Positions 11,704 to 46,113 of a DNA stretch of 64,000 nucleotides are shown piece after piece (within the stretch, counting starts at the first letter, position 1; every line of letters starts with the position of its first letter). The stretch covers positions 7,899-71,898 of the forward strand of contig JACPPY010000055.1 in NCBI GenBank assembly GCA_016190755.1. The letters are read 5' to 3'. The translations under genes and the position numbers were made by a program. The DNA is from Chloroflexota bacterium. Its GTDB lineage: Bacteria; Chloroflexota; Dehalococcoidia; JACPPY01. The notes below the pieces were generated by a model that was given only the letters and a program-made list of their open reading frames with translations, did not search any database and was not told the origin of the DNA.

Positions 11704-11777
11704 GCGACGGGAATATGCCTGGAGTATTATTACTTTGTCACACACACCTGCTTGTCGAGTAAACCGTGAGGGAGCAC

Positions 11778-12767
11778 ATGCGCCATAGAGAGCGAGTCAA
11801 AGCAGCCTTGGAAAGCCTGGAGGTCGACAGAACACCGGTCAGCATGTGGCGGCACTTTTTCAAGGAAGAGACGTCGGCGGAAGGTCTCTCCGAGGCGATG
11901 CTGGCCTTCCAGCGCGAGTACGACTGGGATTTCATGAAAGTCAATCCAAGGGCATCCTACCATTGCGAGGACTGGGGCCTGAAGGTGCAATATGACGGTG
12001 ATACCCCTCCAGCCGTCATAGAGAGGCCTGTGCGACACCCCCGGGACTGGTTGAAGCTGGATGTGCTTGACGTTCAGCATGGAGTTCTCGGCGAACACCT
12101 GCGCGCCCTGGAACTGATAGGGAAAGGACTGGAAGACGAGGTCCCATTCATCATGACAGTGTTCACACCGCTATCCATAGCCTCACGAATGGCCCCTTCC
12201 GAGGACGAGTTCCTGGCACACCTGCGGGAACATACGGATAGCGTACGGCAGGCACTAGAGGTCATAACCGAAACCTTTACCTCTTTCTCTTTGGCCTGCC
12301 TGGAAAGGGGCGCCAGCGGCATATTCCTGGCCACCACGTCCTGGGCTACAACCCAGCGCATGACAGAGGATGATTACAGGCTATATGCGCGAGAGTATGA
12401 ACTGAAGCTGTTGAACGCGGTGCATCAGGCAGAATTCAACGTCTTACACATATGCCGGGAGAGAAACATGTTGCAAATACTGAAGGACTATCCTGCTCAC
12501 GCATTCAACTGGGATGCCAGGGCAAAGGGCAATCTTTCCCTGTCTGAGGGAAGGGCAGTGGTCGGTGGCAAGGCCGTTATAGGAGGGTTGCCACACCAGC
12601 ATGACCTTACTGAAGCAAGCCCCCGCGAGCTAATAGCGGAGGAGCGCGGAATGAGGGTGGCCATGGGCAAGAAAGGCTGGTTGCTGGGCCCGGGTTGTAC
12701 CTTCACGTCGGACGCTCAACCAGCTAACCTTCATGCCATAAGACAAGCAGTGGAAACTGTCCCCTAG
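11778..12767 (+). CDS. Uroporphyrinogen decarboxylase (URO-D) family protein, MtaA/CmuA-like methyltransferase fold
   Basis: N-terminus RERVKAALE..EVDRTPV and the overall length are typical of the URO-D family. ATG 11778 is preceded by GAGGGAG. The longest ORF starts at GTG 11766. Confidence 0.7.
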   Translation: MRHRERVKAALESLEVDRTPVSMWRHFFKEETSAEGLSEAMLAFQREYDWDFMKVNPRASYHCEDWGLKVQYDGDTPPAVIERPVRHPRDWLKLDVLDVQHGVLGEHLRALELIGKGLEDEVPFIMTVFTPLSIASRMAPSEDEFLAHLREHTDSVRQALEVITETFTSFSLACLERGASGIFLATTSWATTQRMTEDDYRLYAREYELKLLNAVHQAEFNVLHICRERNMLQILKDYPAHAFNWDARAKGNLSLSEGRAVVGGKAVIGGLPHQHDLTEASPRELIAEERGMRVAMGKKGWLLGPGCTFTSDAQPANLHAIRQAVETVP

Positions 12768-12793: not shown

Positions 12794-14389
12794 TCACACG
12801 TGCGGCTTACTCTTTCCCCTGACAGCTACTGTTTGGGCCCGTGTATCACCCCACGTTGGCATGACCATCATGTGCAAGGTCTCTGGGGCCCCGGCGACAA
12901 CTATCATGATATCTTCAGGCTTTTCGCAGGGTGCGAGCTTCCCGTTGACAATGCGCCATCCCGGCTCTCGTTTGCCTCCGGTCAGCGCAAGACACTTCTC
13001 CAGGGACAGGCGGCTGTGCTCGAAAAGGAATCGCTTCACGTCTGCTTTTGAGAGTCCTGCTCTGGCCAGCGCCTTGGACTGGGCAGGCGTGATCACGAAC
13101 AATGGTTCCCCCGTCCCAAGCCAGAAATCGTTATTGCCCACAGTCGCAAGCGAGTCGGCCGCCACGCGCAACCAACTCAAAACATCCGTGCCAGAGACCG
13201 CAGCATTTCTCATATCCTGCACGCCAGCGACCGTGACGGCGCTGTCCTCTTTGCTGAAACCCCGCTCCACGTGTAATGGCTCCCAGGCGCTTCCTTCCTC
13301 GTCCTCGCCGAGGCAAAAAGAATACTTTGCGGGCATGCCCAGGAATGCCATGTCGATATCCCCCGGCAACGCACCTCCAAGGTTGATAAGGACAAGCCTA
13401 ATGGCACGGCCAATAGTCGCGTTGGCTCTCCAGCCCAGGCCAAGGCACCCCCAGCTACAATTCACGTCGAGGTCTCGCCTGGCGGGCCCGTTCACTATGA
13501 GCAATGGCGCAACGGGATTGGTCGTCGCCTGGATTCCATTCAGATTGAACTCCGGGGCAGCCATAGCCTCCACGGCTGCTACCACAACCGGCATGTGCTG
13601 TGGCAAGCAACCCGCCATGACGGCGTTAACAGCTATCTTGCGTATCGTAGCTTCGCCAAAGGCAGGCGCCACATCGGCCACCACCTCATCGGGTGCCCTG
13701 TCCACATACTTGAACATCCTACCAACCCGTGCCGGGGTAGGAGGCACTACAGGCAGGCCGTCACCCCAACGTTTTTCACAGACCAGTGCATAGAACCGGT
13801 CCGGGGAATCCGGAATGTCTAGTATGCCTCCGGCGCCTGATCCTTTTTTGGCCACTATCCTCTTTTGCTGGGCCTTACCTGTAATGGCGTTGATCGCTTG
13901 CTGGATTGCTTCGGAGGCAGCAGCCTCCAGCTCCGCTTCAGCCATTACCTCCACGTTGGCCGGCAGCACGACCAGGCGTAGTCCGGGCATACCACGGCCT
14001 TTCGCCACAAGTTCGGCCTCTTTTACAAAAGAAGAGGTGACAAGTTCAACTGACGGGATGCCCCGCTTTTCCAATTCCACTGTGTCGTGGACACTCCACG
14101 AGGTGCATGACCCTCAGTTGCCCAGGGCAACGATGGCTGCGTCGCATGCGCCTGCCACTTCATCCAGTAGCTCAGGAGGCGCCGCGCCCGTCAGCGGTAT
14201 GCTTTTCCGGAGCAGCCTTGATGGCGTCTTTTGATTGCTCAGCATGGCTTCGAGACGGGTGAAGATGGCCCCGGCGCTGGCCCAGCCGTTATCAAGGAAG
14301 GATACCCTCTTACCGCCCAACGAATTTAGCGGAGCGGAGGGCGCCACGGGAGGTCTCGTCAAACTGTACGTCGGGTCCAGCACCTTCAT
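12794..14389 (-). CDS. UGSC-family selenoprotein (in-frame TGA = Sec at 14114..14116) fused to a large C-terminal domain of unknown function
   Basis: ORFs 14114..14422 and 12794..14080 share one frame and are separated only by a TGA. Read-through gives [28 protein letters not shown]. ATG 14389 is preceded by AAGGAG at 10 nt. A hairpin lies 12 nt after the TGA. Confidence 0.75.
14085..14101 (-). promoter_or_regulatory. SECIS-candidate stem-loop downstream of the in-frame UGA
   Basis: On the mRNA: UCGUGGA-GUG-UCCACGA, a perfect 7-bp stem. Alternatively a 6-bp stem with an AGUGU loop that contains GU. It starts 12 nt after the UGA. Confidence 0.45.
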
Positions 14390-14557
14390 CCAGCTTATAC
14401 TCCTTCGAGGCAGTATCATCACAAACGGGTTGCCATTTCCGTCAGGCTAGCACATCAGGTGTCTTTCGGCAACAGGGGTTATCCAAGATTATCGGCCTTG
14501 GCATGTTTGACACACGCAGCATATTGCTGTATAGGTGAAGACCAAGGCCGGAGCGAA

Positions 14558-15901
14558 ATGAGCGCAGGAAGAGTAATCGTCATAGGAGCAGGGGCCTCTG
14601 GCATGCTGGCGGCTGGAAGGGCGGCCGAATCCGGCGCAGCGGTGTTGCTGCTGGAGAAAACGGAACAGCCGGGGAAAAAGCTGCTCATCACCGGCGGCAG
14701 GCGGTGCAACCTGACCAACGACCGGCCGCTCGAAGAGTTCATTGCCATGTTCGGCAATAACGGGCGCTTCCTCTACGGGCCTTTCAAAGTCTTCTTCAGG
14801 GAAGAGTTGAAGGCCCTGCTGGGACGGTATGGGCTCCAGACGTCTATCGAACCCGACGGCAGGGTCTTCCCGGCATCCATGCTCTCTCGTGACGTGGTCC
14901 TGGTGTTTAATCGATACATGAACGACCATGGAGTGAAAACGCAATTCGGCGCCAGAGTGGAAGGTATTGACGTCGATCACGGCTGGGTGGTTGGTGTCAG
15001 GCTCGCCAATAGGACCATACCTACCAGAGCAGTGGTCATGGCGACCGGTGGAGCTTCTTTCCCCGGCACAGGTTCCAGCGGTGATGGATACCGCATAGCG
15101 GAGCGCCTCGGCCACACTATAGAGCGATTGCGCCCTGCCCTCGTACCGCTCGTCGTCAATGAAATGGACTGCGCCAAGAACATGCAAGGAGTAAGCTTGT
15201 ATAATGTCCGGCTCACTTCCTACGCATGCAAGGCCGAGGATATCGATCCTTCCCTGACGCCCCCACCAGCAGATTGCGGCCGGGGGATAGCCGGTCGAAG
15301 GCCCAGACGTCCGATTATCGAGAGCAGGACAGGAAACGTTGTGATAACCCATTTCGGCATAAGCGGTCCGGCCGTCCTGTTGATGAGCCTGGCTGTAGTG
15401 GACGCAACGGAGCAGGGCCCGGTAAGCGTAGCCATCGACCTGAAGCCAGATATCTCTGAACAGGAGCTAGACCAGCAAATCCGAGGGGAGCTCTCATACC
15501 ATGGCCAACGAAGTTATCAGAACGTCCTGCGCACTCTCGTGCCGCCACGCATGGCCAGCGCCCTGGCAAACCTCACTGGCGTGCCACCGGATAGGCCAGG
15601 ACATCAGGTGACCGCTGAGGAACGAAAACTCCTGACGCGATGCCTGAAGTCTTTTCGTTTCAATATTCAAGGGCCTTTGTCGATGGCCGCGGCAATGGTC
15701 ACTGCCGGCGGGGTGGCGCTGGATGAGATCAACCCTCAGACCATGGAGTCCAGGCTGGTGAGAGGCCTATACTTTTGCGGAGAGGTAATAGACCTGGATG
15801 CGGATACCGGGGGATATAACCTGCAGGCGGCGTTCTCTACAGGTTACGTGGCGGGAGAACGGGCGGCATCAGGTATTCCACATACGCAGGACAGTCCCTA
15901 A
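14558..15901 (+). CDS. NAD(P)/FAD-dependent oxidoreductase, HI0933/BaiN (aminoacetone oxidase-like) family
   Basis: VIVIGAGASGMLAAGRAAESGAAVLLLEK...GKKLLITGGRRCNLTN. C-terminal GGYNLQAAFSTG. The start is moved to ATG 14558, just before the GxGxxG motif. Confidence 0.85.
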   Translation: MSAGRVIVIGAGASGMLAAGRAAESGAAVLLLEKTEQPGKKLLITGGRRCNLTNDRPLEEFIAMFGNNGRFLYGPFKVFFREELKALLGRYGLQTSIEPDGRVFPASMLSRDVVLVFNRYMNDHGVKTQFGARVEGIDVDHGWVVGVRLANRTIPTRAVVMATGGASFPGTGSSGDGYRIAERLGHTIERLRPALVPLVVNEMDCAKNMQGVSLYNVRLTSYACKAEDIDPSLTPPPADCGRGIAGRRPRRPIIESRTGNVVITHFGISGPAVLLMSLAVVDATEQGPVSVAIDLKPDISEQELDQQIRGELSYHGQRSYQNVLRTLVPPRMASALANLTGVPPDRPGHQVTAEERKLLTRCLKSFRFNIQGPLSMAAAMVTAGGVALDEINPQTMESRLVRGLYFCGEVIDLDADTGGYNLQAAFSTGYVAGERAASGIPHTQDSP

Positions 15902-16806: not shown

Positions 16807-17610
16807 CTAGCGTTCGAACTCAGCTTGGGAGTATATAGTCTCGTTCTTGAGCACCGATATCAAGCGTACCATGCGCATGACATCCCTGTTCAACACATCC
16901 AGACAGGCTGCGGATAATCCGAGACCGGACAATATAGCCAGCACGGCGCCATCTATTGCCGGACGAAGCCTCTTGGGGGCGCCGACCGATGCGTTGCTCA
17001 CCCAGCATATGCTCCTGACAGTCTGTTCGAAGGCATCAGGAAGAGCGCTCAGGAATTTCGTCACCTCGACCAGGTGGCGCGATCCCGGTTCGGCTGTCAC
17101 ATGCAGTATTCCCGGGTCTATCAGTATGCGCTCATCCGGTATTCCAGCTTCCTTCGCCGCACCTACTAAGACCGCAGCCCTATCGAGCATCTCTCTTGCA
17201 TCATTCGGATTTGCCGGGTCCACAACAAGCAGTATCGCATCAGCTTCGTGTTGGGCAACAAGGGAAAGCATCTCCAGGTGGTACTGGCTCAAAGATATGT
17301 GGTTGACAATTGGGGCCACACTGCAGGCCTGAAGTCCGGCCTCAAGCGTGCCTGCATGATTGGTGCTCAGGCAAAGGCGCGTATCAACAGCATCCTGTAT
17401 CGCTTTCACGGCGAACTCCATTATCTCTGGATCATCATGGTGTTGCTGCAAGTTCACATCCAGTACATGGGCCCCGGCGGCCGTGCACTCTTTCGCTATG
17501 GCCTGCAAGAGCAGAGCGGCAGATGTCCTGCTGCCTTCGGGTTTCATGCGCCGAAGCGCTCTGTCTATCCTGCTATCTCGCGTCGTAATGTTGTTGGCGA
17601 CTAACAGCAT
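16807..17610 (-). CDS. Pterin-binding (DHPS-like) domain protein, AcsE/MtrH-like methyltetrahydrofolate methyltransferase paralog
   Basis: Aligns by eye with the AcsE-like protein at 37684..38601 (AHVLDVNL / AYALDLNI; LCLSTN / LSLDTTN). ATG 17610 is preceded by AGGAGAGAGG. Confidence 0.6.
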   Translation of the reverse strand: MLLVANNITTRDSRIDRALRRMKPEGSRTSAALLLQAIAKECTAAGAHVLDVNLQQHHDDPEIMEFAVKAIQDAVDTRLCLSTNHAGTLEAGLQACSVAPIVNHISLSQYHLEMLSLVAQHEADAILLVVDPANPNDAREMLDRAAVLVGAAKEAGIPDERILIDPGILHVTAEPGSRHLVEVTKFLSALPDAFEQTVRSICWVSNASVGAPKRLRPAIDGAVLAILSGLGLSAACLDVLNRDVMRMVRLISVLKNETIYSQAEFER

Positions 17611-17806
17611 CGTAAACCTCTCTCCTAGTTCATTTTTCTGAACCATCATTACCACCCTCATTCTAGCATGTCGTGCATTGGCGTCCTGCATGAGACCGTA
17701 CACACTGACATGTTCCAAGAGTTCTGCTATGATGCAACCCGGCAACTATACAGCAGGCAATGGCGTCGGGCTGCCATTCCGCAGGCAGACAGGATGAGAC
17801 CGAACA

Positions 17807-37683: not shown

Positions 37684-38601
37684 TTACAGTTTCAAATAGC
37701 TGTGGGCATACAAGTTCTTGCCCTCCAGCACCTGAACCGTCTTGACGATGTCCCGCACGCGCTGGTCACTCATATCGGCGCCACTCGGATCATACTTCTC
37801 ACCGGACTGGTAGGCGTCATAGATTCCCAGGTATACTTTGTTAACCGGCGTAGAATCGTCCCTTGACTCCAGGACCCTTGGTATTCGCATCAGCTCCGCA
37901 TCAAACACGTCCGCGATGGGTGCATCCAATCCGGCGCCAAGCATCATTATCAAGAATACTTCATTCATCAACGGCCTGATCTCCGTGGGACAACTGTTGG
38001 AAATGTTCGACAGGCCGCAGGTAGTCAGCGGCGCGGGTTCGGCTATCTGTTTGAACAACCGCACCGCCTCGACGGTCTGCATCGCCTGGTCTTGGTTCCC
38101 GTTGACGGTCAACACCAGGGGATCAAGAAATAGCCTGTCAGACGGAATCCCGGCTTCCATGGCAGCGGGGAGTATCTTTTCCACTACCAGCTCGACCCTG
38201 GCATCCGCCGACGTCGGTAGTGCGGTACCGCCATAGGTCAGGGCAATAATATGGGCGTCGTACTGGGCAGCCATAGGCATGAGGACCTTCAGCCGGTCGG
38301 TAGCGTCCGTGCTGTTGATAATGGCCATTTTTTTGGACGCCTTCAGCCCGGACTCGATGGCTGCCGCGTTCGTGGTATCTAAAGACAAGGGCAAGTCCAC
38401 CACTTCCTGGACGGTGCGTACCATCCAGTCCATAACCTCAACCCCGGTCTTTTTCTGAGGGCCGATGTTAAGGTCAAGCGCATAAGCACCTTTTTGCGCC
38501 TGCCGCTTAGCCATGTTCTGGACGAATGCCTTGTCTCTGCCCTCGATGGCAGTCCTCACCGCAGGCGCTATTACGTGGATGGATTCTCCAATAACCTTCA
38601 T
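37684..38601 (-). CDS. acsE: Methyltetrahydrofolate:corrinoid/iron-sulfur protein methyltransferase (pterin-binding, AcsE-like)
   Basis: DHPS-like pterin-binding barrel (ALDLNIGP, LSLDTTN) at the last position of the ACS/CoFeSP cluster. Confidence 0.8.
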   Translation of the reverse strand: MKVIGESIHVIAPAVRTAIEGRDKAFVQNMAKRQAQKGAYALDLNIGPQKKTGVEVMDWMVRTVQEVVDLPLSLDTTNAAAIESGLKASKKMAIINSTDATDRLKVLMPMAAQYDAHIIALTYGGTALPTSADARVELVVEKILPAAMEAGIPSDRLFLDPLVLTVNGNQDQAMQTVEAVRLFKQIAEPAPLTTCGLSNISNSCPTEIRPLMNEVFLIMMLGAGLDAPIADVFDAELMRIPRVLESRDDSTPVNKVYLGIYDAYQSGEKYDPSGADMSDQRVRDIVKTVQVLEGKNLYAHSYLKL

Positions 38602-38631
38602 ATATATACCCCCTTAATGCATAATTCCCCA

Positions 38632-39432
38632 TTACATACCGTCCGGCCGGGGCGCAACCAGACCCAGCTTTATCGCCAGGTCGGCTACTCCCTCCCTAAG
38701 GCTTGAACGGTCGGACAACTTGGTCAACGGCTCCCCTTTCTCCTCTACCCCAGCAAGTTCATTATCCACCGGCAGCACTGCAAGAACCTCCAGCCCTGTC
38801 TCGGCGGCTTGACGTTCAATAGCTGGAGGAATCTTACCCGGCACCCTGTTGATCACCAGACCCATTCTGCGGACGTCCGACTTCAATTCAGCTACAAGGT
38901 TTTTTATTCTGGCGGCGGTCACAAGCCCGCGCACAGACGCGTCAGATACTATGAGAAGAACATCAACGTCCCTGGTCGTCTGCCGGCTCAGGTGTTCCAA
39001 TCCGGCCTCATTATCTATGACCACGTAGTCATAGTTAGTTTCCATCTGGTCTATAACCGCGCGAAGCACATTGTTCGCCGCACAATAGCACCCCGGGCCT
39101 TCCGGGCGGCCCATGGCCAGCAGGTCCACATGCTCCGATTCCACCAGTACCTCTCTGATGCCCAACTCCAAATAGCTAGCCTTCGACATACCGGCCTGGA
39201 ACTCACCGCTCCTTACTTTCTTCGCAGCATCCTCTCGCACACCTCCAATAGTACCTTCCAGAGGCAACCCGAGGCACATATGCAGGTTCGAGCTGGGGTC
39301 AGCATCAATGGCCAGCACTGTGCCCTGCCGCGACAGGAGCTGAATTAGCAGCGCGGCAATAGTCGTCTTGCCGGTTCCCCCCTTGCCCGCAACCGCTATT
39401 GTCGTGGTCTTATGGTGTGCCACTTGATTCAT
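38632..39432 (-). CDS. cooC: CooC/AcsF-type nickel-insertion ATPase
   Basis: Deviant Walker A AVAGKGGTGKTT and the CxC motif GPGCYCAANN. Confidence 0.85.
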   Translation of the reverse strand: MNQVAHHKTTTIAVAGKGGTGKTTIAALLIQLLSRQGTVLAIDADPSSNLHMCLGLPLEGTIGGVREDAAKKVRSGEFQAGMSKASYLELGIREVLVESEHVDLLAMGRPEGPGCYCAANNVLRAVIDQMETNYDYVVIDNEAGLEHLSRQTTRDVDVLLIVSDASVRGLVTAARIKNLVAELKSDVRRMGLVINRVPGKIPPAIERQAAETGLEVLAVLPVDNELAGVEEKGEPLTKLSDRSSLREGVADLAIKLGLVAPRPDGM

Positions 39433-41377
39433 GCCGGTCTCCCAGCAGCGCAGCTACAGATGGGAACCGGTTCATCTCCGTGTGAGGCAAGAACATCGCT
39501 GCGGTGAACTCGTCCATGAAAGATGCATCGGCAACGAGTTCGAAATAGGTCATTTTCCCAACAACTTCCTCCACCTGCGCCCTAGCATGCTTGGACATGA
39601 GTATATTGTACGCGCCTGACAAAGAGGTGTTTCCCAGGAACTTGAACCTATCCCAGGGCAGGTCCGGCAGCAATCCGATCTGAATGGCTTTCTCGACGTT
39701 GATGTGCTGACCGAAACTGCCGCCGATGAGCACTTCTTCGACATTTTCCAACGGCACACCTACGTTCCGTGCCATAACAGCGATGCCGGCATATATGGCG
39801 GCCTTCGTGCGTATCAGGTTATTTATGTCCACTTCGGTCAGGACTATATCTTCTCCGATGCTGGTTTCTCCAGCCCACGCCAGGACATATTCCACTCCGT
39901 GGTCACCAACACGCGCCCGTGACTTCCCATTTCTTGCCTTTTCCTGAAGGCGTGCGACGTTCATGCGACCTGACCGGTCCACAACCCCTGTAAGCAGCAT
40001 CTCCGCCAGCGCCGAGATCAGTCCTGACCCGCAGATGCCTACCGGCTCTGCATCACCGATCACTCTTATTGTCGGCTCAAGCGTGGATGTGTTGATAGTT
40101 ACGTCTTCTATCGCACCCTTAGCCGCCCTCACGCCAAATCTCATGCCAGCGCCTTCAAACGCCGGCCCGGCGCTGCAGGCACATGTAGTCATCCAGTCAG
40201 CCCCACCCATCACGATCTCTCCATTGGTGCCCACATCCAGAAACAGCGTCAGCTTATCCGACCGGAAGATGCAAGAGCTGATAGCGCCAGCACTTATGTC
40301 ACCCCCAACGTAGGCAGCGACCGCCGGAACGGTGTACACAGAGGCATATGGGTTGATCTTGATACCTAACTCAGCAGCCGTATATACCGGGAAGAATATG
40401 GCCCCCGGCACGTATGGCTCTTCGCGTATCGTCCTTGCCGGCATACCAAGAAAGAAGTGGGCCATGGTAGTGTTGCCAGCCACCACCATGCTTTGTATTT
40501 CCCTGGCATCGATCTTACTTCCAACCGCGAGTTCTGCGACCAGGTCGTTTATGGCGCTCAGAACAAGTTGCCGCAACTCATCCAGCCCGCCGTCGCGCTG
40601 GCTGTATATTATGCGCGATATGACATCTTCCCCACGTGGCACCTGCCTGTTCAACATAGAGGCACGCCCTGCAGACCGTCCGGAGATCAGGTCAACAAGG
40701 TCCACCCAGACATTGGTCGTGCCGATATCAATCGCCGCTCCCCAGAGCTGCCCCTTTTTCTCCCCTGCCTGCACATCTATCAGGCGAGGGACACCCCCCT
40801 TGTCATGAGTGTCGAGTGTTATGGTGACTTTCCAATCGGCTTCCCGAAGTGTGCGAGAAAGAGTCCGCATGATCGGCAAGACGACATCTACATCCTTGAT
40901 GCCCTGGGTATTCGCCAAGGCTCTCTTCAGCCGTTCGAGATCGCCTGCGTTATCCTCAAGGCTGGGCCTGGGGAGTTCAAGGTATACTCTGCGGACAGCC
41001 GGCAGTCTGGGGAATTCGCAACGTACGGCTGCTGCTTTACGGGTAGCGGCCGTCTGCACGACAATCTTCTCTCGCTCCTTGGGGAGAGGTACAGTTACCA
41101 CAAGCTCGCCGACGACCTGGGTGATACACGAAAGAATCCAACCCTCGTCAACCTGCTTGGCAGTCAGGTGAGGGTTCTGAGGCCGGAACACGTTGCCACT
41201 CTCAACCCTGACCAGGCACCGGCCACACCGCCCTTGGCCTCCGCACGGCGTATCGAGCGGAACGCCGGCCTGGACTGCCGCATCCAGGACCAGCGTTCCA
41301 GGCGCGACCAGTGCACTTTTCCCGGAGGGTTGGAATACTACCTTGATCTTATTCGGTTTGTCGCTCAGGGTTTCCAC
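39410..41377 (-). CDS. Corrinoid activation/regeneration protein (RACo/AcsV-like; 2Fe-2S ferredoxin + ASKHA ATPase)
   Basis: N-terminal plant-type ferredoxin motif CGGQGRCGRC, then an ASKHA-fold domain (DIGTTN, DVGTNGE). Confidence 0.8.
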   Translation of the reverse strand: METLSDKPNKIKVVFQPSGKSALVAPGTLVLDAAVQAGVPLDTPCGGQGRCGRCLVRVESGNVFRPQNPHLTAKQVDEGWILSCITQVVGELVVTVPLPKEREKIVVQTAATRKAAAVRCEFPRLPAVRRVYLELPRPSLEDNAGDLERLKRALANTQGIKDVDVVLPIMRTLSRTLREADWKVTITLDTHDKGGVPRLIDVQAGEKKGQLWGAAIDIGTTNVWVDLVDLISGRSAGRASMLNRQVPRGEDVISRIIYSQRDGGLDELRQLVLSAINDLVAELAVGSKIDAREIQSMVVAGNTTMAHFFLGMPARTIREEPYVPGAIFFPVYTAAELGIKINPYASVYTVPAVAAYVGGDISAGAISSCIFRSDKLTLFLDVGTNGEIVMGGADWMTTCACSAGPAFEGAGMRFGVRAAKGAIEDVTINTSTLEPTIRVIGDAEPVGICGSGLISALAEMLLTGVVDRSGRMNVARLQEKARNGKSRARVGDHGVEYVLAWAGETSIGEDIVLTEVDINNLIRTKAAIYAGIAVMARNVGVPLENVEEVLIGGSFGQHINVEKAIQIGLLPDLPWDRFKFLGNTSLSGAYNILMSKHARAQVEEVVGKMTYFELVADASFMDEFTAAMFLPHTEMNRFPSVAALLGDRHESSGTP

Positions 41378-42723
41378 GTCTTCTTGAAGTAACCGCCGAC
41401 ATCCATGGCTTCCATCGGGCCTACCAACACTTTCCAGCCGGAAAGCTCTTCTTCCAATTCACCCCTGAGCACTGCAACCTTGCCCGGCAGAACAATCGAC
41501 TTATGGCTGATCTTGTCGGCCACATTGAATTGTTTCACTGCCTTCGCAATCCTCTCGGCATCGAACTTGCCGGCTGCCCAGGCGGTCAGCACAGACAGGC
41601 CTTCGGTATCGCATATCAAGAGCCAGGACGGAACACCGCTGGCTTCTATTTCACCAGCTACTGAGAAGTACGTCAGGGAGAAGTTGGTGGTGATGCACAA
41701 TGGGCTATCCGGCTTCGGTGCGCCAACCTCGTAAATACCTGCAGCCATCTGTATCGGTTTCTGCGGATCAGTGTAGATATTGAGGCGTAATGTGAGCAAT
41801 GGATAGGCGAGGGCAGGCGAGAAGTGCTCCAGCACAACAACGCTGCTATACTTGGATATTTGCTCTGCCGCAAGTGCTGCTTCCTCTTCTGTTGTCTTGG
41901 CCTGCACACCGGGGAAGGTCATGACCGGAAATCCCAGCGGCCTGAAGTTTTTCTTCAGCGCCAGCCTGCGTATCTCTGTCAGGGAATCAATTGAGGACTT
42001 GAAGCTATCCACACCAGGGTCAAGTATAATGTCCTCAATACCCGCCTGCGCGACCTTCTCTGAGAGGGCCACCAGGTTTTCTAGGCCTGAGCTATCACGT
42101 ACCACCAGCGGACAGGAGTGCTTCTTAGCTATATCCGCCATACCGGACCAGTTTTCTTTTGTTGCGGCATATACTACCGGCTTGCGCGCTGCAGCTTTGG
42201 CAACAGCCGCATCCATCGTCGCCGGATTGTCCGACATCAATGCAACGGCCAGACCGGACTTGGCTAGCACGGTTTCCACCGCTTCGAGGAACCTCGCCTG
42301 GTCCTTCGAGGCGTTCTCCACGGCAAAGCCATCCATGGTCAGTTTCATCCCCACGCGCTCCACCTGATAGCCGCCGACCTCATCCACGAGCTTCGCAATG
42401 TCTTCCTTGGAGGCGGTGTCTTTTATCCTGACCATTATCGCCGGCGGGTGATAGAATGTCTTTTCGTGCCGGAACATGACGGTCTCATTCCCTACCTCTA
42501 CCTTATGCGTGTCGCCGCCGAATTTCACCAACCTGATAGGGGGACGGCCCGCTGATTCGAGGGCAGCCTTGGACTGAGCTGAAAGGTCTGGGCAGGCAGT
42601 GATATCCACGACGCGGGCAGCCACTTTCATGGCGAAAGCCAGGCAGGTGGGGAAGTTGCACTTTTTGCAGTTCGTCTTGGGAAGGTATTTATATATCTCG
42701 ATTCCGGTTAGAGCCACGGTCAA
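41365..42723 (-). CDS. acsC: Corrinoid iron-sulfur protein large subunit (AcsC/CdhE)
   Basis: N-terminal 4Fe-4S motif CKKCNFPTCLAFA, followed by TIM-barrel and cobalamin-binding regions. Confidence 0.88.
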   Translation of the reverse strand: MTVALTGIEIYKYLPKTNCKKCNFPTCLAFAMKVAARVVDITACPDLSAQSKAALESAGRPPIRLVKFGGDTHKVEVGNETVMFRHEKTFYHPPAIMVRIKDTASKEDIAKLVDEVGGYQVERVGMKLTMDGFAVENASKDQARFLEAVETVLAKSGLAVALMSDNPATMDAAVAKAAARKPVVYAATKENWSGMADIAKKHSCPLVVRDSSGLENLVALSEKVAQAGIEDIILDPGVDSFKSSIDSLTEIRRLALKKNFRPLGFPVMTFPGVQAKTTEEEAALAAEQISKYSSVVVLEHFSPALAYPLLTLRLNIYTDPQKPIQMAAGIYEVGAPKPDSPLCITTNFSLTYFSVAGEIEASGVPSWLLICDTEGLSVLTAWAAGKFDAERIAKAVKQFNVADKISHKSIVLPGKVAVLRGELEEELSGWKVLVGPMEAMDVGGYFKKTWKP

Positions 42724-42761
42724 TTCCTCCTATTCTGGAAGATGACTACCAGTCTTATTTG

Positions 42762-43724
42762 CTAAAAGGACTTATCCAGTGCTGCCTTAACGGTGACCAC
42801 CGTCTTCGGGTGCCGAAGCACCAGGATATCTGCCCCGGCAGCCAACAGGCTTATTGCTGTCACATTTTCCCAGATCAGCGACCTCTCCTGATTGTCTCCC
42901 CAGGCCTGCGGCACGTCCAAGGTCGCCTTGGACTCTTTCTGGCGCCAAGACTCCTCACCTGCGGTGCAGATCATGGGCATGGAGGTCATCCCGTCTCCCA
43001 TCAGGGCAGCAAGGCGCAGTCGCTCCATGACAGAGTAGGTATATTCCAGGCCATAGCCGAGTGCACCGGTAGTTGGGTCCATCAGTATGGAGTCCGGCGA
43101 CAGGCCCACATCGGAAAGGAGAATATTCAGTTGCTTGGCCAGGTTGATCTCGATCGGTGTTTTGGCTATTGCCACATGACCATCCGCCATGCATGTCGCC
43201 GCTATGGTCTTGTAGTTTTTTTCGACGCAGTTGCCCAGGCCGACCCTCTGGCCCTTCGCCACATCCGACACAGCGACGAGCACCTCGTTGTCTTTTTCAG
43301 CGACATCAGGCCCAACAAATATGACCGGCAAATCAACTGCCGACAGGACTTCGCTCGCTGATTTCTTCGCCTGTGCGGCTCCGGTGTTGCTAGCCTCCGG
43401 ATGGGCACTTGCCAGGCGTATGTACAGCAGGTCGGCGCCGAATTCAGCTGCTTTTTTGGCCCAGGCTCCAGGGTTCTTCAGTGCATCGCCCCAGGCAGAT
43501 ACCAGGAACTCTGACCAGTCTGTCGGCTCCTTGTCCTGCACCTCTATCGCAATTGCAGGCCGATGAGGCTGCGCTCCCTCGAATTTGACGAACGGTAGCG
43601 TTGTCCCACCGCCGACAGTGATAGTCTTCCGCCCACCAGACCCTAGCTTGAGTTCTCGGATTTTCCCGGTCCACTTCTCTACGGGCGCCTCAAGTGGTGC
43701 CATGCTTACCTCCTTCCTGTACAC
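42762..43724 (-). CDS. acsD: Corrinoid iron-sulfur protein small subunit (AcsD/CdhD)
   Basis: 320-aa TIM-barrel protein between acsB and acsC. Position and size match AcsD. Confidence 0.85.
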   Translation of the reverse strand: MYRKEVSMAPLEAPVEKWTGKIRELKLGSGGRKTITVGGGTTLPFVKFEGAQPHRPAIAIEVQDKEPTDWSEFLVSAWGDALKNPGAWAKKAAEFGADLLYIRLASAHPEASNTGAAQAKKSASEVLSAVDLPVIFVGPDVAEKDNEVLVAVSDVAKGQRVGLGNCVEKNYKTIAATCMADGHVAIAKTPIEINLAKQLNILLSDVGLSPDSILMDPTTGALGYGLEYTYSVMERLRLAALMGDGMTSMPMICTAGEESWRQKESKATLDVPQAWGDNQERSLIWENVTAISLLAAGADILVLRHPKTVVTVKAALDKSF

Positions 43725-43784
43725 ATGCGCGATGACAGGCTATCGATCTAGTTGTGATCGGATAACAAGCTTGACTCACACGAT

Positions 43785-43814
43785 AGCTTCCTCAACACAA
43801 TGACAGAGGAAGCT
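43785..43814 (-). other. Intercistronic stem-loop between acsB and acsD
   Basis: AGCTTCCTC / GAGGAAGCT, a 9-bp perfect stem with a 12-nt loop and no U-tract, inside the 151-nt acsB-acsD spacer. Confidence 0.4.
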
Positions 43815-43875
43815 CATTAGTCCGACTGGTGCCGCCGCCACAAATAGGTCCGCACGCGTATCCGGTCGCGTCTAC

Positions 43876-46113
43876 CTATAATAGCGGTGGCATCTCCAGG
43901 GCCGGATGCTGCTTCTGCTGCAAGAAGGCCACCAGCTCATCCGGAGTCGTGGCCGAAGTGCCGTCGGCAATCCTGTCCAGCAAGTCCGGGACCCCGGCTG
44001 CTTCGGCAGCCGCCTTCAGCTCCTCACCCAGCTCCTCTTTCAGGTTCTTTGACAGCCAAACCAGGCGTTTGATGCCGCCTTCGGTCAAAATGAATTTCTT
44101 GCTGGTGATGTAGTATTTCCCGTGTCCCATCATCCCAGGCGTCTGCAAGCCACCGCCTACCGTCCCCATCAGGGTGGTAAAGGTCATGCCGCTCGGCGTC
44201 ATGGAGTAGTCCTCGCGCGACACGACCATGAAGCCATTGGCTTCCGGAATAAGTGCCAGAACGCACTCACAGCACCCACAGGTAGTCATAGGCGAATCCA
44301 TCACAGAATAAACCGTGAATCGGTCCACTTTCATCTGCGAATGCTCGTAAACGAACTTGTTAACGCCCTCCCACTCGCCCTTTGTCTGGTCGATGCATGG
44401 GCCCTTCTTCACCGGCTGGTTGGGGCCGGTCGGATTGATCTCGAAAGAGGCCTTGCAATCCAGCCAGCTGTACGCACCACACAGACCAACACGCTCAGGG
44501 TTGATGACACAAATGTGCGTGGGAGCAAAGGACTGGCACAGCGAGCAACTGTAGTAAGTATCGACTGCTTCATCCGTCAGGCCCGCGATGCGGTCGTTCC
44601 TTTCCTTATATATGCCGCGGGCTTTCTCGATCAGCTCTTGGACCTTCTTCGGCTCCGTATACAGCGTCACCTGAATCTTGTCCACAATGGCGCCGAACTG
44701 GTTGTGGTATACGCCATGAAGTATATCGCCTATGTGCCTCAGCCTGAATCCCTTGGCGTAAGCATTCTTGCTCAGGCGGATCCAGGTTATGTCACGTTGG
44801 CCCTGGTGCTGCAAGCCTTCTGCACCGTTCAGGAAGTGGTGCACCTGCCGCTCCAGCACAGGCTCAAAGTCTTTTTGCATCTTTCGCCCGGACACCTCGA
44901 TCACAATGCCGAGAGGGATCTTGGCACCGACCTCGAACTTGTCTATGTCTGGTCCAACGACAGTTACCTTGCCGTCTTCTACCTCTTCAGGAGGCCTGGT
45001 CGTGAGCCACTCGAAGCACATGCCGCCTTTGCCGCCGAACTCGGACTGCAAGTCAGCACGCCGGACGACCTCGCCCTCAAAGGCCGGGCCGTAGGCCACC
45101 GGTATCTTGATGGTGGCTATCTTGATCTTAATGCCACGCACCTCAATGCAGCGCTGTACCAGGCGTTCCGCACGTTCCATATCGTCCCTGCCAGGAATAT
45201 CGTCAAATGGCATGCTAACGACGTGCTCGTACTGCGTAATGCCGGTGGGCAGTATGTTGGGTACAGCCGTATCGCACACGGCAGGGAAGCCATAAGAGAT
45301 AGCACCTGCCCCGGTAGCCCATTTCACATCGTCCATCGGCCCCAGCGCGAGGGCAAAGGCAAAGCAACGGAACTTGTTGTACAACAGCACACGCCGGAAG
45401 TCACCGGGTGTCACGCCGCCGAATGAAAACGTTGCCCTGGACGCATAGCCCAGAGCATAGATCGTTGAGATAGTATCTGTCCCGAAAGGCACAGTGAACG
45501 TGTCGTAACCCAACTGGACACCGGACTCCAGCAATTGGTCCACTATTGAACGGCCGTTGGATGACGAGGAGAGAAATACGAGCTGGCCCTTGGATTGCAG
45601 TTCGCGGACTATCTTGACGGCGACTTCGTTGTTCTTGGCAGCCCCCAGGAGCGCGGCAAACCCTGGCATCCTGCCGTCGACCATCTGGATACCCCAGCCC
45701 CGCATCTGCACATCGTTTATGGGCCCGTTAAAGGTAAATCCGTTGCGCGTTTCCGGTTGTTGTCCTTTGGCGAACCGGATGCCTTCGATTATCTCTTCGG
45801 CGAACAGAGTCGCCATCCCGGCGTCGAGGGTCTCACCAAGATAAGGCAGCCACACATGCTCGCCCGGCAGAGGCGGCAACAATCCTTTTGCATGCTCCAA
45901 CGACTTTTTCAAGTCGCCAATCGTTTCTACCTTCTGTCCCGTAAACCCGTAGATAACAGGAAGCCAGTATGCGGTGCCGCCACCGCCCTTGTCCTTGAAT
46001 TGGATTTTCGCATCTGGGCCAACTGTTTTGAGGGCATCAGCATATAGTTCTTCAGCCTGCCTGACAACCTTGTGGGCGCCTCTTATGGCTGCTGTTGCAA
46101 TATATCTCGACAT
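43876..46113 (-). CDS. acsB: Acetyl-CoA synthase catalytic subunit (CO-methylating acetyl-CoA synthase, AcsB/CdhC)
   Basis: A-cluster ligand motifs CSLCQSFAPTHICVINPERVGLCG and TTCGCCEC. 745 aa, full bacterial-type N-terminal domain. Confidence 0.93.
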   Translation of the reverse strand: MSRYIATAAIRGAHKVVRQAEELYADALKTVGPDAKIQFKDKGGGGTAYWLPVIYGFTGQKVETIGDLKKSLEHAKGLLPPLPGEHVWLPYLGETLDAGMATLFAEEIIEGIRFAKGQQPETRNGFTFNGPINDVQMRGWGIQMVDGRMPGFAALLGAAKNNEVAVKIVRELQSKGQLVFLSSSSNGRSIVDQLLESGVQLGYDTFTVPFGTDTISTIYALGYASRATFSFGGVTPGDFRRVLLYNKFRCFAFALALGPMDDVKWATGAGAISYGFPAVCDTAVPNILPTGITQYEHVVSMPFDDIPGRDDMERAERLVQRCIEVRGIKIKIATIKIPVAYGPAFEGEVVRRADLQSEFGGKGGMCFEWLTTRPPEEVEDGKVTVVGPDIDKFEVGAKIPLGIVIEVSGRKMQKDFEPVLERQVHHFLNGAEGLQHQGQRDITWIRLSKNAYAKGFRLRHIGDILHGVYHNQFGAIVDKIQVTLYTEPKKVQELIEKARGIYKERNDRIAGLTDEAVDTYYSCSLCQSFAPTHICVINPERVGLCGAYSWLDCKASFEINPTGPNQPVKKGPCIDQTKGEWEGVNKFVYEHSQMKVDRFTVYSVMDSPMTTCGCCECVLALIPEANGFMVVSREDYSMTPSGMTFTTLMGTVGGGLQTPGMMGHGKYYITSKKFILTEGGIKRLVWLSKNLKEELGEELKAAAEAAGVPDLLDRIADGTSATTPDELVAFLQQKQHPALEMPPLL

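Follow-up and report, generated by a model that had tools for sequence, protein, structure and literature searches.

Among selenoproteins, the UGSC-containing protein has been described as one whose function is unknown (PMC1976440). In 2008, the Global Ocean Sampling selenoproteome added a 'UGSC/Unknown_1 fusion' (PMC2398784, Fig. S1A), and in the same year a thioredoxin (Trx)-like fold was suggested for UGSC (PMC2398784). Since 2007–2008, UGSC has ranked with the most abundant selenoprotein families of the environment, still without a known function. For the insertion signal, the described reference is the selenocysteine insertion sequence (SECIS) of E. coli fdhF; its 17-nt upper stem-loop (nt 15–31) is separated from the UGA by 11 nt and has G23 and U24 in the loop (PMC8659212). 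Here, we analyze a UGSC gene in a 64-kb stretch of Chloroflexota DNA (64,000 nucleotides of contig JACPPY010000055.1; hereafter the window), in which two open reading frames (ORFs) on the minus strand are separated by a single UGA at 14114..14116. The best explanation overall, which we consider very probable, is that they form one gene for a two-module selenoprotein, in which the UGA specifies selenocysteine (Sec) with the help of a SECIS and the UGSC module is the redox partner of the C-terminal domain (C-domain). Both the UGSC family and its fusion to an unknown domain were already published in 2007–2008, the fusion in 2008, which lowers the novelty of the locus.

Gene structure and family membership

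ORFs 14114..14422 and 12794..14080 lie in one frame of the minus strand, with TGA 14114..14116 as the sole intervening stop. Reading through it gives a product of 531 amino acids (aa) in which the residues AIVALGN directly precede the TGA and the U-G-S-C motif (GN-U-GSC) begins at it. The start at ATG 14389 is matched by the N-termini of aligned homologues. The features of the gene, with the evidence for each, are as follows.

12794..14389, minus strand: complete predicted selenoprotein coding sequence (CDS), 531 aa plus stop, read through the UGA (single frame with one internal stop; homologue N-termini)
14400..14405, minus strand: Shine-Dalgarno-like AAGGAG, followed by 10 nt and then ATG 14389 (direct sequence reading)
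14114..14116, minus strand: UGA, predicted selenocysteine codon, residue 92 (aligned TGA/TGC in relatives; frame kept on both sides)
14105..14107, minus strand: codon of Cys95, probable resolving Cys of the U-x-x-C motif (sequence; conserved in nearly all homologues)
13880..14383, minus strand: UGSC domain, residues 3–170, carrying U92-G-S-C95 (Pfam PF24696, E = 2.3e-40; AlphaFold2 (AF2) model of homologue P0024)
14085..14101, minus strand: predicted bacterial SECIS core hairpin (local minimum free energy (MFE) structure and family comparison)
12797..13804, minus strand: C-terminal domain, residues ~196–531, with no function or fold match (Pfam, NCBIfam, PDB, AF2, Foldseek)
13607-13609, minus strand: codon of the invariant Cys261 (family alignment)
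13313-13315, minus strand: codon of the near-invariant Cys359 (family alignment)

GenBank holds only the 428-aa 3' ORF (P0001, 'hypothetical protein HYX87_05630'), from a Chloroflexi metagenome-assembled genome (MAG). An earlier note on this DNA, made from the letters alone, had joined the two same-frame ORFs across the single TGA, had placed the start at the ATG that follows AAGGAG by 10 nt, and had expected standard gene callers to split or truncate the gene; the sequence, the aligned N-termini and the deposited entry bear it out on all three. The annotation is corrected in that a single predicted 531-aa selenoprotein replaces two fragments, of which GenBank has just one (as 'hypothetical'). 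Across the 64-kb window, TGA 14114..14116 is the sole credible ORF-TGA-ORF junction, and a search for further selenoprotein candidates gave none that was credible. As TGA serves as the ordinary stop of other genes in the window, the standard genetic code applies, not a reassigned TGA. A scan for promoters and terminators gave nothing above shuffle expectation.

Family membership was assessed by a profile search of the joined product with Cys placed at the TGA. Residues 3–170 matched positions 2–171/172 of Pfam PF24696 (UGSC) at 139 bits, against a cut-off of 25, and the match extends across the TGA. This full-length match upholds the assignment to the UGSC family made in the earlier note, which had pointed to the family literature; that literature exists (PMC1976440, PMC2398784). 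For the NCBIfam equivalog NF041046, 'UGSC family (seleno)protein', the score was 109.6 bits when the U position was filled with Cys and 102.1 bits with X. Equivalog-level naming is unjustified because these scores are below the 125-bit cut-off, and by these profile scores the protein is a homologous but divergent, fused branch of UGSC.

The in-frame UGA and its hairpin

A scan of one genome per GTDB species yielded 80 related loci, and the U column could be aligned in 78 of these. The codon aligned to the window TGA is TGA in 73/78 and TGC in 4/78, the remaining locus (L078) being a very weak match. All five further, independently obtained loci also carry TGA, bringing the total to 78/83, and the TGA-bearing loci are spread over many phyla. 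In tblastn, the sequences on either side of the codon gave matches that share a frame and run right up to it, and full-length database homologues have NCGSC at the U position. With three additional Cys-form genes, the four TGC genome loci made up seven Cys-form controls for the comparisons below. The column therefore holds Sec or Cys (TGA in 78 loci, TGC in 4 loci plus the 3 further Cys-form genes), a point that the earlier note had proposed to check. A fixed column that alternates between Sec and Cys, flanked by selection on either side, is the standard mark of selenoprotein genes; as comparative evidence, the pattern speaks strongly against reading the TGA as a true stop, a pseudogene or an error of assembly.

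Two kinds of loci within this set stand out. First, two Streptomycetaceae-type MAG loci (L048:6274-6328 and L036:6211-6265) have TGA at the U column within the motifs UGTS../UGSS.. and lack the second Cys; the hairpins of these loci are displaced and differ in sequence (L048: CCAUCAGC-GUG-GCUGAUGG), so that structure is retained despite a divergent peptide. Second, in-frame Sec UGSC–C-domain fusions occur in the isolates Robertmurraya sp. 2P01SA (L027, chromosome) and Vineibacter terrae CC-CFT640 (L051), which are experimentally tractable hosts because they are cultured.

The mRNA can form a 17-nt hairpin, UCGUGGA-GUG-UCCACGA (14101..14085), beginning 12 nt downstream of the UGA. With numbering from the U of the UGA, its 7-bp stem pairs positions 16–22 with 26–32, and its loop is G23 U24 G25 (14094-14092). 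The hairpin has three features expected of bacterial SECIS elements, namely an onset ~11 nt after the UGA within the CDS, G-U in the loop and, across the family, compensatory change. The perfect hairpin with a GU-containing loop, already described in the earlier note, is confirmed and is conserved in the family. It is the local MFE structure, but the MFE fold of an 81-nt segment uses a different, long-range helix between the UGA region and a segment ~60 nt downstream. By these tests, the significance of the hairpin comes only from comparison with homologues.

For that comparison, we used a gapless alignment of 74 Sec loci, with columns 15–22 paired with 33–26 and columns 23–25 as the loop. Here, 89.9% of cells were paired, compared to 19–49% when the 3' partners were slid, and double-sided changes were found in 7/8 hairpin pairs. 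Pair 21–27 occurs as G-C in 59 sequences and as C-G in 14, and the C-G form arises partly through a synonymous change in a Val codon. The covariation score was 0.177 versus 0.070, and 0/500 shuffles reached any observed measure, in a test made on related sequences within a coding region. Loop GU at positions 23–24 is present in 72/74 Sec forms (codon AGU or UGU) and in 0/7 Cys forms, of which six encode the same amino acids with AGC or UGC; the seventh uses another codon. All five core stem pairs are intact in 71/74 Sec forms versus 1/7 Cys forms. Within these alignments, synonymous-site constraint on the loop GU and the core stem tracks the TGA. We rejected a lower-stem extension with a bulged A34, as pairs 13–36 and 14–35 are mostly unpaired across the family. 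An archaeal Cys form from Natrialba asiatica DSM 12278 (L044:6025-6079) keeps 7/8 hairpin pairs with GC, not GU, in the loop, and may hold a fossil SECIS, the relic of a Sec-to-Cys conversion or of horizontal transfer from bacteria.

These comparisons bear on two alternatives. An assembly or sequencing error could have produced TGA from TGC or TGT, so that the real protein would be a Cys form; the sequence comes from a metagenome-assembled genome, and the family does include Cys forms. However, the window itself carries the Sec-specific synonymous signature (AGU, giving loop G23U24, with the core stem intact), which the Cys forms do not (GU in 0/7, intact core in 1/7), and Sec forms far outnumber Cys forms among the relatives, leaving this account almost no weight. 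The TGA could instead be a true stop, dividing two separate genes or marking a pseudogene that arose by a nonsense mutation in a Cys codon. Annotation of only the downstream 428-aa ORF in GenBank, the use of TGA as a normal stop elsewhere in the window and the Sec machinery not being seen there would fit such a stop. Yet it would halve one globular domain, since PF24696 spans the TGA from profile position 2 to 171; the TGA recurs at the same column in 78 loci of many phyla, the frame being kept to either side of it; and a covarying SECIS hairpin is present that is lost in Cys forms. We consider a true stop extremely improbable. At the level of comparative evidence, the UGA at 14114-14116 is shown to be a selenocysteine codon, marked by a predicted SECIS of the SelB-dependent type.

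The two modules and their pairing

The fold of the UGSC module was examined in an AF2 model of a full-length Cys homologue (P0024; predicted local distance difference test (pLDDT) 93.0, predicted template-modelling score (pTM) 0.92). Foldseek matched the UGSC half to lumazine synthase (TMt 0.59), azoreductase, the flavodoxin domain of flavodiiron proteins and receiver domains, and the modelled half resembles a flavodoxin-like three-layer alpha/beta fold. The thioredoxin fold suggested for UGSC (PMC2398784) was rejected, as no thioredoxin appeared among the top 50 Foldseek matches. In P0024, Cys97 (the U equivalent) is a helix N-cap and the second Cys lies in the first helix turn; in this model, the helix N-terminus is a typical position for a redox motif.

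A different use of the Sec would be as a catalytic nucleophile in a GrdB/PrdB-like reductive bond cleavage, the resulting selenoether being resolved by Cys95 with no thioredoxin-like relay. The U-x-x-C motif is shared with GrdB and PrdB (PMC2398784 Table 2), the multi-subunit Grd/Prd enzymes offer a parallel to the obligate pairing with a large module, and one weak NCBIfam match (TIGR01917, E = 0.19) put the U near the GrdB Sec. That match is non-significant and did not recur, with 1/27 UGSC-containing members matching at E = 0.4; none of the 27 matched the GRDB Pfam family (PF07355), and no pyruvoyl-type partner (GrdE/PrdA) was found in the neighbourhoods examined. We rejected GrdB/PrdB homology of UGSC on the profile results and regard the bond-cleaving mechanism as unlikely.

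The C-domain was described in the earlier note as a part of roughly 380 aa that could not be assigned. Its size is smaller, at about 335–350 aa, and the assignment indeed fails at the level of Pfam, NCBIfam, PDB sequence and PDB fold. Residues ~196–531 have no Pfam or NCBIfam match, including when 120 family members were scanned individually, and neither the single sequence nor a profile matched PDB sequences. An AF2 model made from the 428-aa ORF of the window with a 120-sequence alignment reached a pLDDT of 93.2 and a pTM of 0.91; Foldseek found no PDB chain for it at E <= 1e-3, and a search of BFVD viral folds gave nothing. By exhaustive profile search, the family comprises 7,685 clusters at 50% identity, 5,134 of them at E <= 1e-10. 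Its invariant residues are Asp210, Cys261, Asn310 and Asn323, and its near-invariant residues are Cys359, Glu362, Glu364, His373 and His506.

The top Foldseek matches of the C-domain were selenophosphate synthetases, at non-significant values (E = 0.04–1.5, TM 0.11–0.14). Together with the conserved Cys, His and acidic residues, they would fit a role of UGSC as a carrier that delivers Se or S to the C-domain for cofactor or metabolite synthesis, not as the partner of a reductase. We rejected a SelD/PurM-like fold, given these TM-scores and an hhalign probability of 1.7% against E. coli SelD. The Cys forms function without Se, and the thioredoxin-reductase fusion described below points to electron transfer; a carrier role is, in our judgement, highly unlikely.

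The reading of UGSC as a redox partner draws on how the two modules occur across loci. They were found as same-frame fusions, as adjacent UGSC and C-domain genes in different frames, in the order C-domain then UGSC, and as tandem paralogue arrays. In three reversed fusions (P0143, P0150, P0163), the called product stops at UGSC profile position 92, so that the U would be its next residue. We also sampled five 'standalone' C-domain proteins from long contigs. In 5/5, a UGSC gene with TGA at the U column lies directly upstream, called as two fragments in 4/5 and as the second fragment only in 1/5. A metagenomic protein of 695 aa (P0234) joins the C-domain to a C-terminal thioredoxin-reductase-like Pyr_redox_2 flavoprotein with a CAVC motif. 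These gene arrangements show that most of the loci examined pair UGSC with the C-domain, by fusion in one order or the other or as adjacent genes. To our knowledge, the near-obligate pairing, both fusion orders, the thioredoxin reductase (TrxR) fusion, a partner without a PDB fold neighbour and the fdhF-like G23/U24 register are absent from the papers cited here.

Multiplied units were also observed. Tandem arrays of two to three UGSC–C-domain units occur in a Chloroflexi MAG (L001:2526-7659, L012:4151-9242), in alphaproteobacterial loci (L051, L055, L068, L070) the fusion is followed by a second, divergent C-domain paralogue, and two single proteins (P0121, P0139) contain two tandem C-domains. 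The multiplied units and tandem C-domains hint at a (pseudo)dimeric catalytic module and at substrate diversification.

Gene context, proposed mechanism and relation to known systems

The selenoprotein gene stands alone in the window, between a URO-D-family gene that converges on it and an HI0933-like flavoprotein gene that diverges from it. The nearby genes are listed here.

11766-12767, plus strand: URO-D-family (MtaA-like?) protein, convergent with the selenoprotein gene
14459-15901, plus strand: HI0933-like FAD flavoprotein, divergent, with ~70 nt between
16807-17745, minus strand: pterin-binding protein, ~2.4 kb further upstream

A redox partnership with the HI0933-like flavoprotein is conceivable, although the other loci have no recurring neighbour of this kind. 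Elsewhere, the neighbourhoods are variable and enriched in transporters for organic acids (TctC, TRAP, MFS), CoA-transferase III, enoyl-CoA hydratase and MmgE/PrpD, as well as in luciferase-like monooxygenases, SDRs and amidohydrolases, each of them missing from some loci. In one Chloroflexi MAG locus (L085:5203-7606), genes for a ferredoxin-like protein and an aldehyde:ferredoxin oxidoreductase (AFOR_N/AFOR_C) lie downstream of a UGSC and C-domain pair and in its orientation, a possible hint of carboxylate or aldehyde chemistry. The window also holds, at 37684-46113 on the minus strand, a Wood-Ljungdahl carbon monoxide dehydrogenase/acetyl-CoA synthase (CODH/ACS) cluster, with a methyl-tetrahydrofolate:corrinoid methyltransferase, a MinD/ParA-type (possibly CooC-like) ATPase, the corrinoid activase AcsV and the ACS gamma, delta and alpha/beta subunits. 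Because of this cluster, an anaerobic, acetogen-like Chloroflexi host is implied.

With UGSC as the redox partner of the C-domain, the system would work as follows. The SECIS hairpin with its apical G23/U24 would recruit SelB carrying Sec-tRNA(Sec), as in known bacterial systems. In the finished protein, the U-x-x-C motif at a strand-to-helix junction may cycle between the selenol/thiol and the selenenylsulfide, and UGSC would act as a dedicated module passing electrons to the C-domain. The latter is a probable substrate-binding, Cys-dependent catalytic module, with Cys261, Cys359, His373, His506, Glu362 and Glu364 among its conserved residues. Electrons would most likely come from NAD(P)H via a flavoprotein disulfide reductase, and the gene context faintly suggests small organic acids or acyl-CoA-type compounds as substrates. 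The role of the protein as a redox enzyme is itself one that we infer. A broader proposal, which we put forward tentatively and hold to be doubtful in its full extent, is that UGSC and the ~335-aa domain form a widespread, obligate two-component selenoenzyme with a catalytic fold absent from PDB and Pfam, a new class of selenium-dependent reductase that is fed by a TrxR-type flavoprotein and has paralogue arrays in Chloroflexi and Betaproteobacteria for organic-acid catabolism.

Several observations weigh against reading the locus as a two-module, SECIS-directed selenoprotein. Taken alone, the window hairpin is unexceptional (-9.1 kcal/mol, z = -0.63), with 49/200 shuffles folding as well, and it matches no curated Rfam SECIS family at gathering or permissive thresholds. 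The bulged U17 of the E. coli element is absent, position 17 being a C paired with G31 in 73/74 sequences. As the hairpin sits within the conserved coding segment S-W-S-V-H-D, its conservation partly reflects the protein. SelA, SelB and SelD are absent among the 20 large window ORFs tested, and no tRNA, tRNA-Sec included, was found in the 64-kb window. The selenoprotein gene has no operon partner in the window, no neighbour gene is conserved across most loci examined, and the TrxR-like fusion is a single case (P0234), the sole one among the top 150 representatives.

Beyond this locus, the same annotation error recurs in many database entries, as all five of the sampled 'standalone' partner genes had an unrecognized adjoining UGSC gene. 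The pairing of UGSC with one domain family, together with the TrxR fusion, leads to a concrete, testable hypothesis, for which two cultured carriers exist, and the newly noted pairing, fusions and fold features make the question of UGSC function more tractable.

The closest described relative is the UGSC family itself (Zhang & Gladyshev 2007/2008; PF24696; NF041046). The window protein shares with it a full-length profile match, the U-G-S-C motif, Sec/Cys alternation at the same column, a strong predicted SECIS and the lack of a known function. The canonical family model, however, describes stand-alone proteins (NF041046 profile length 147), whereas the window protein is fused to a ~335-aa domain, and the predicted fold of its branch is nearer to flavodoxin-like domains than to the 'Trx-like fold' of 2008. 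The 'UGSC/Unknown_1 fusion' (PMC2398784) joins UGSC to a conserved unknown domain with a conserved Cys and probably has the same architecture. Compared with the E. coli fdhF SECIS, the window hairpin shares a 17-nt upper stem-loop 11–12 nt after the UGA, with the loop G23/U24 in the same register; it differs in that it lacks the bulged U17, has a fully paired stem and a 3-nt loop, and does not conserve the lower-stem extension. Finally, Trx/TrxR-dependent reductases (MsrA/B, PAPS reductase, arsenate reductase with a dedicated redoxin) likewise combine a small nucleophile-x-x-Cys module, placed at a helix N-terminus, with a larger module, and one relative of the window protein is fused to a TrxR-like flavoprotein. 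Unlike in these systems, the UGSC module has no thioredoxin fold by Foldseek and the C-domain matches no known reductase, so that the resemblance points to a possible mode of action, not to membership of the same family.

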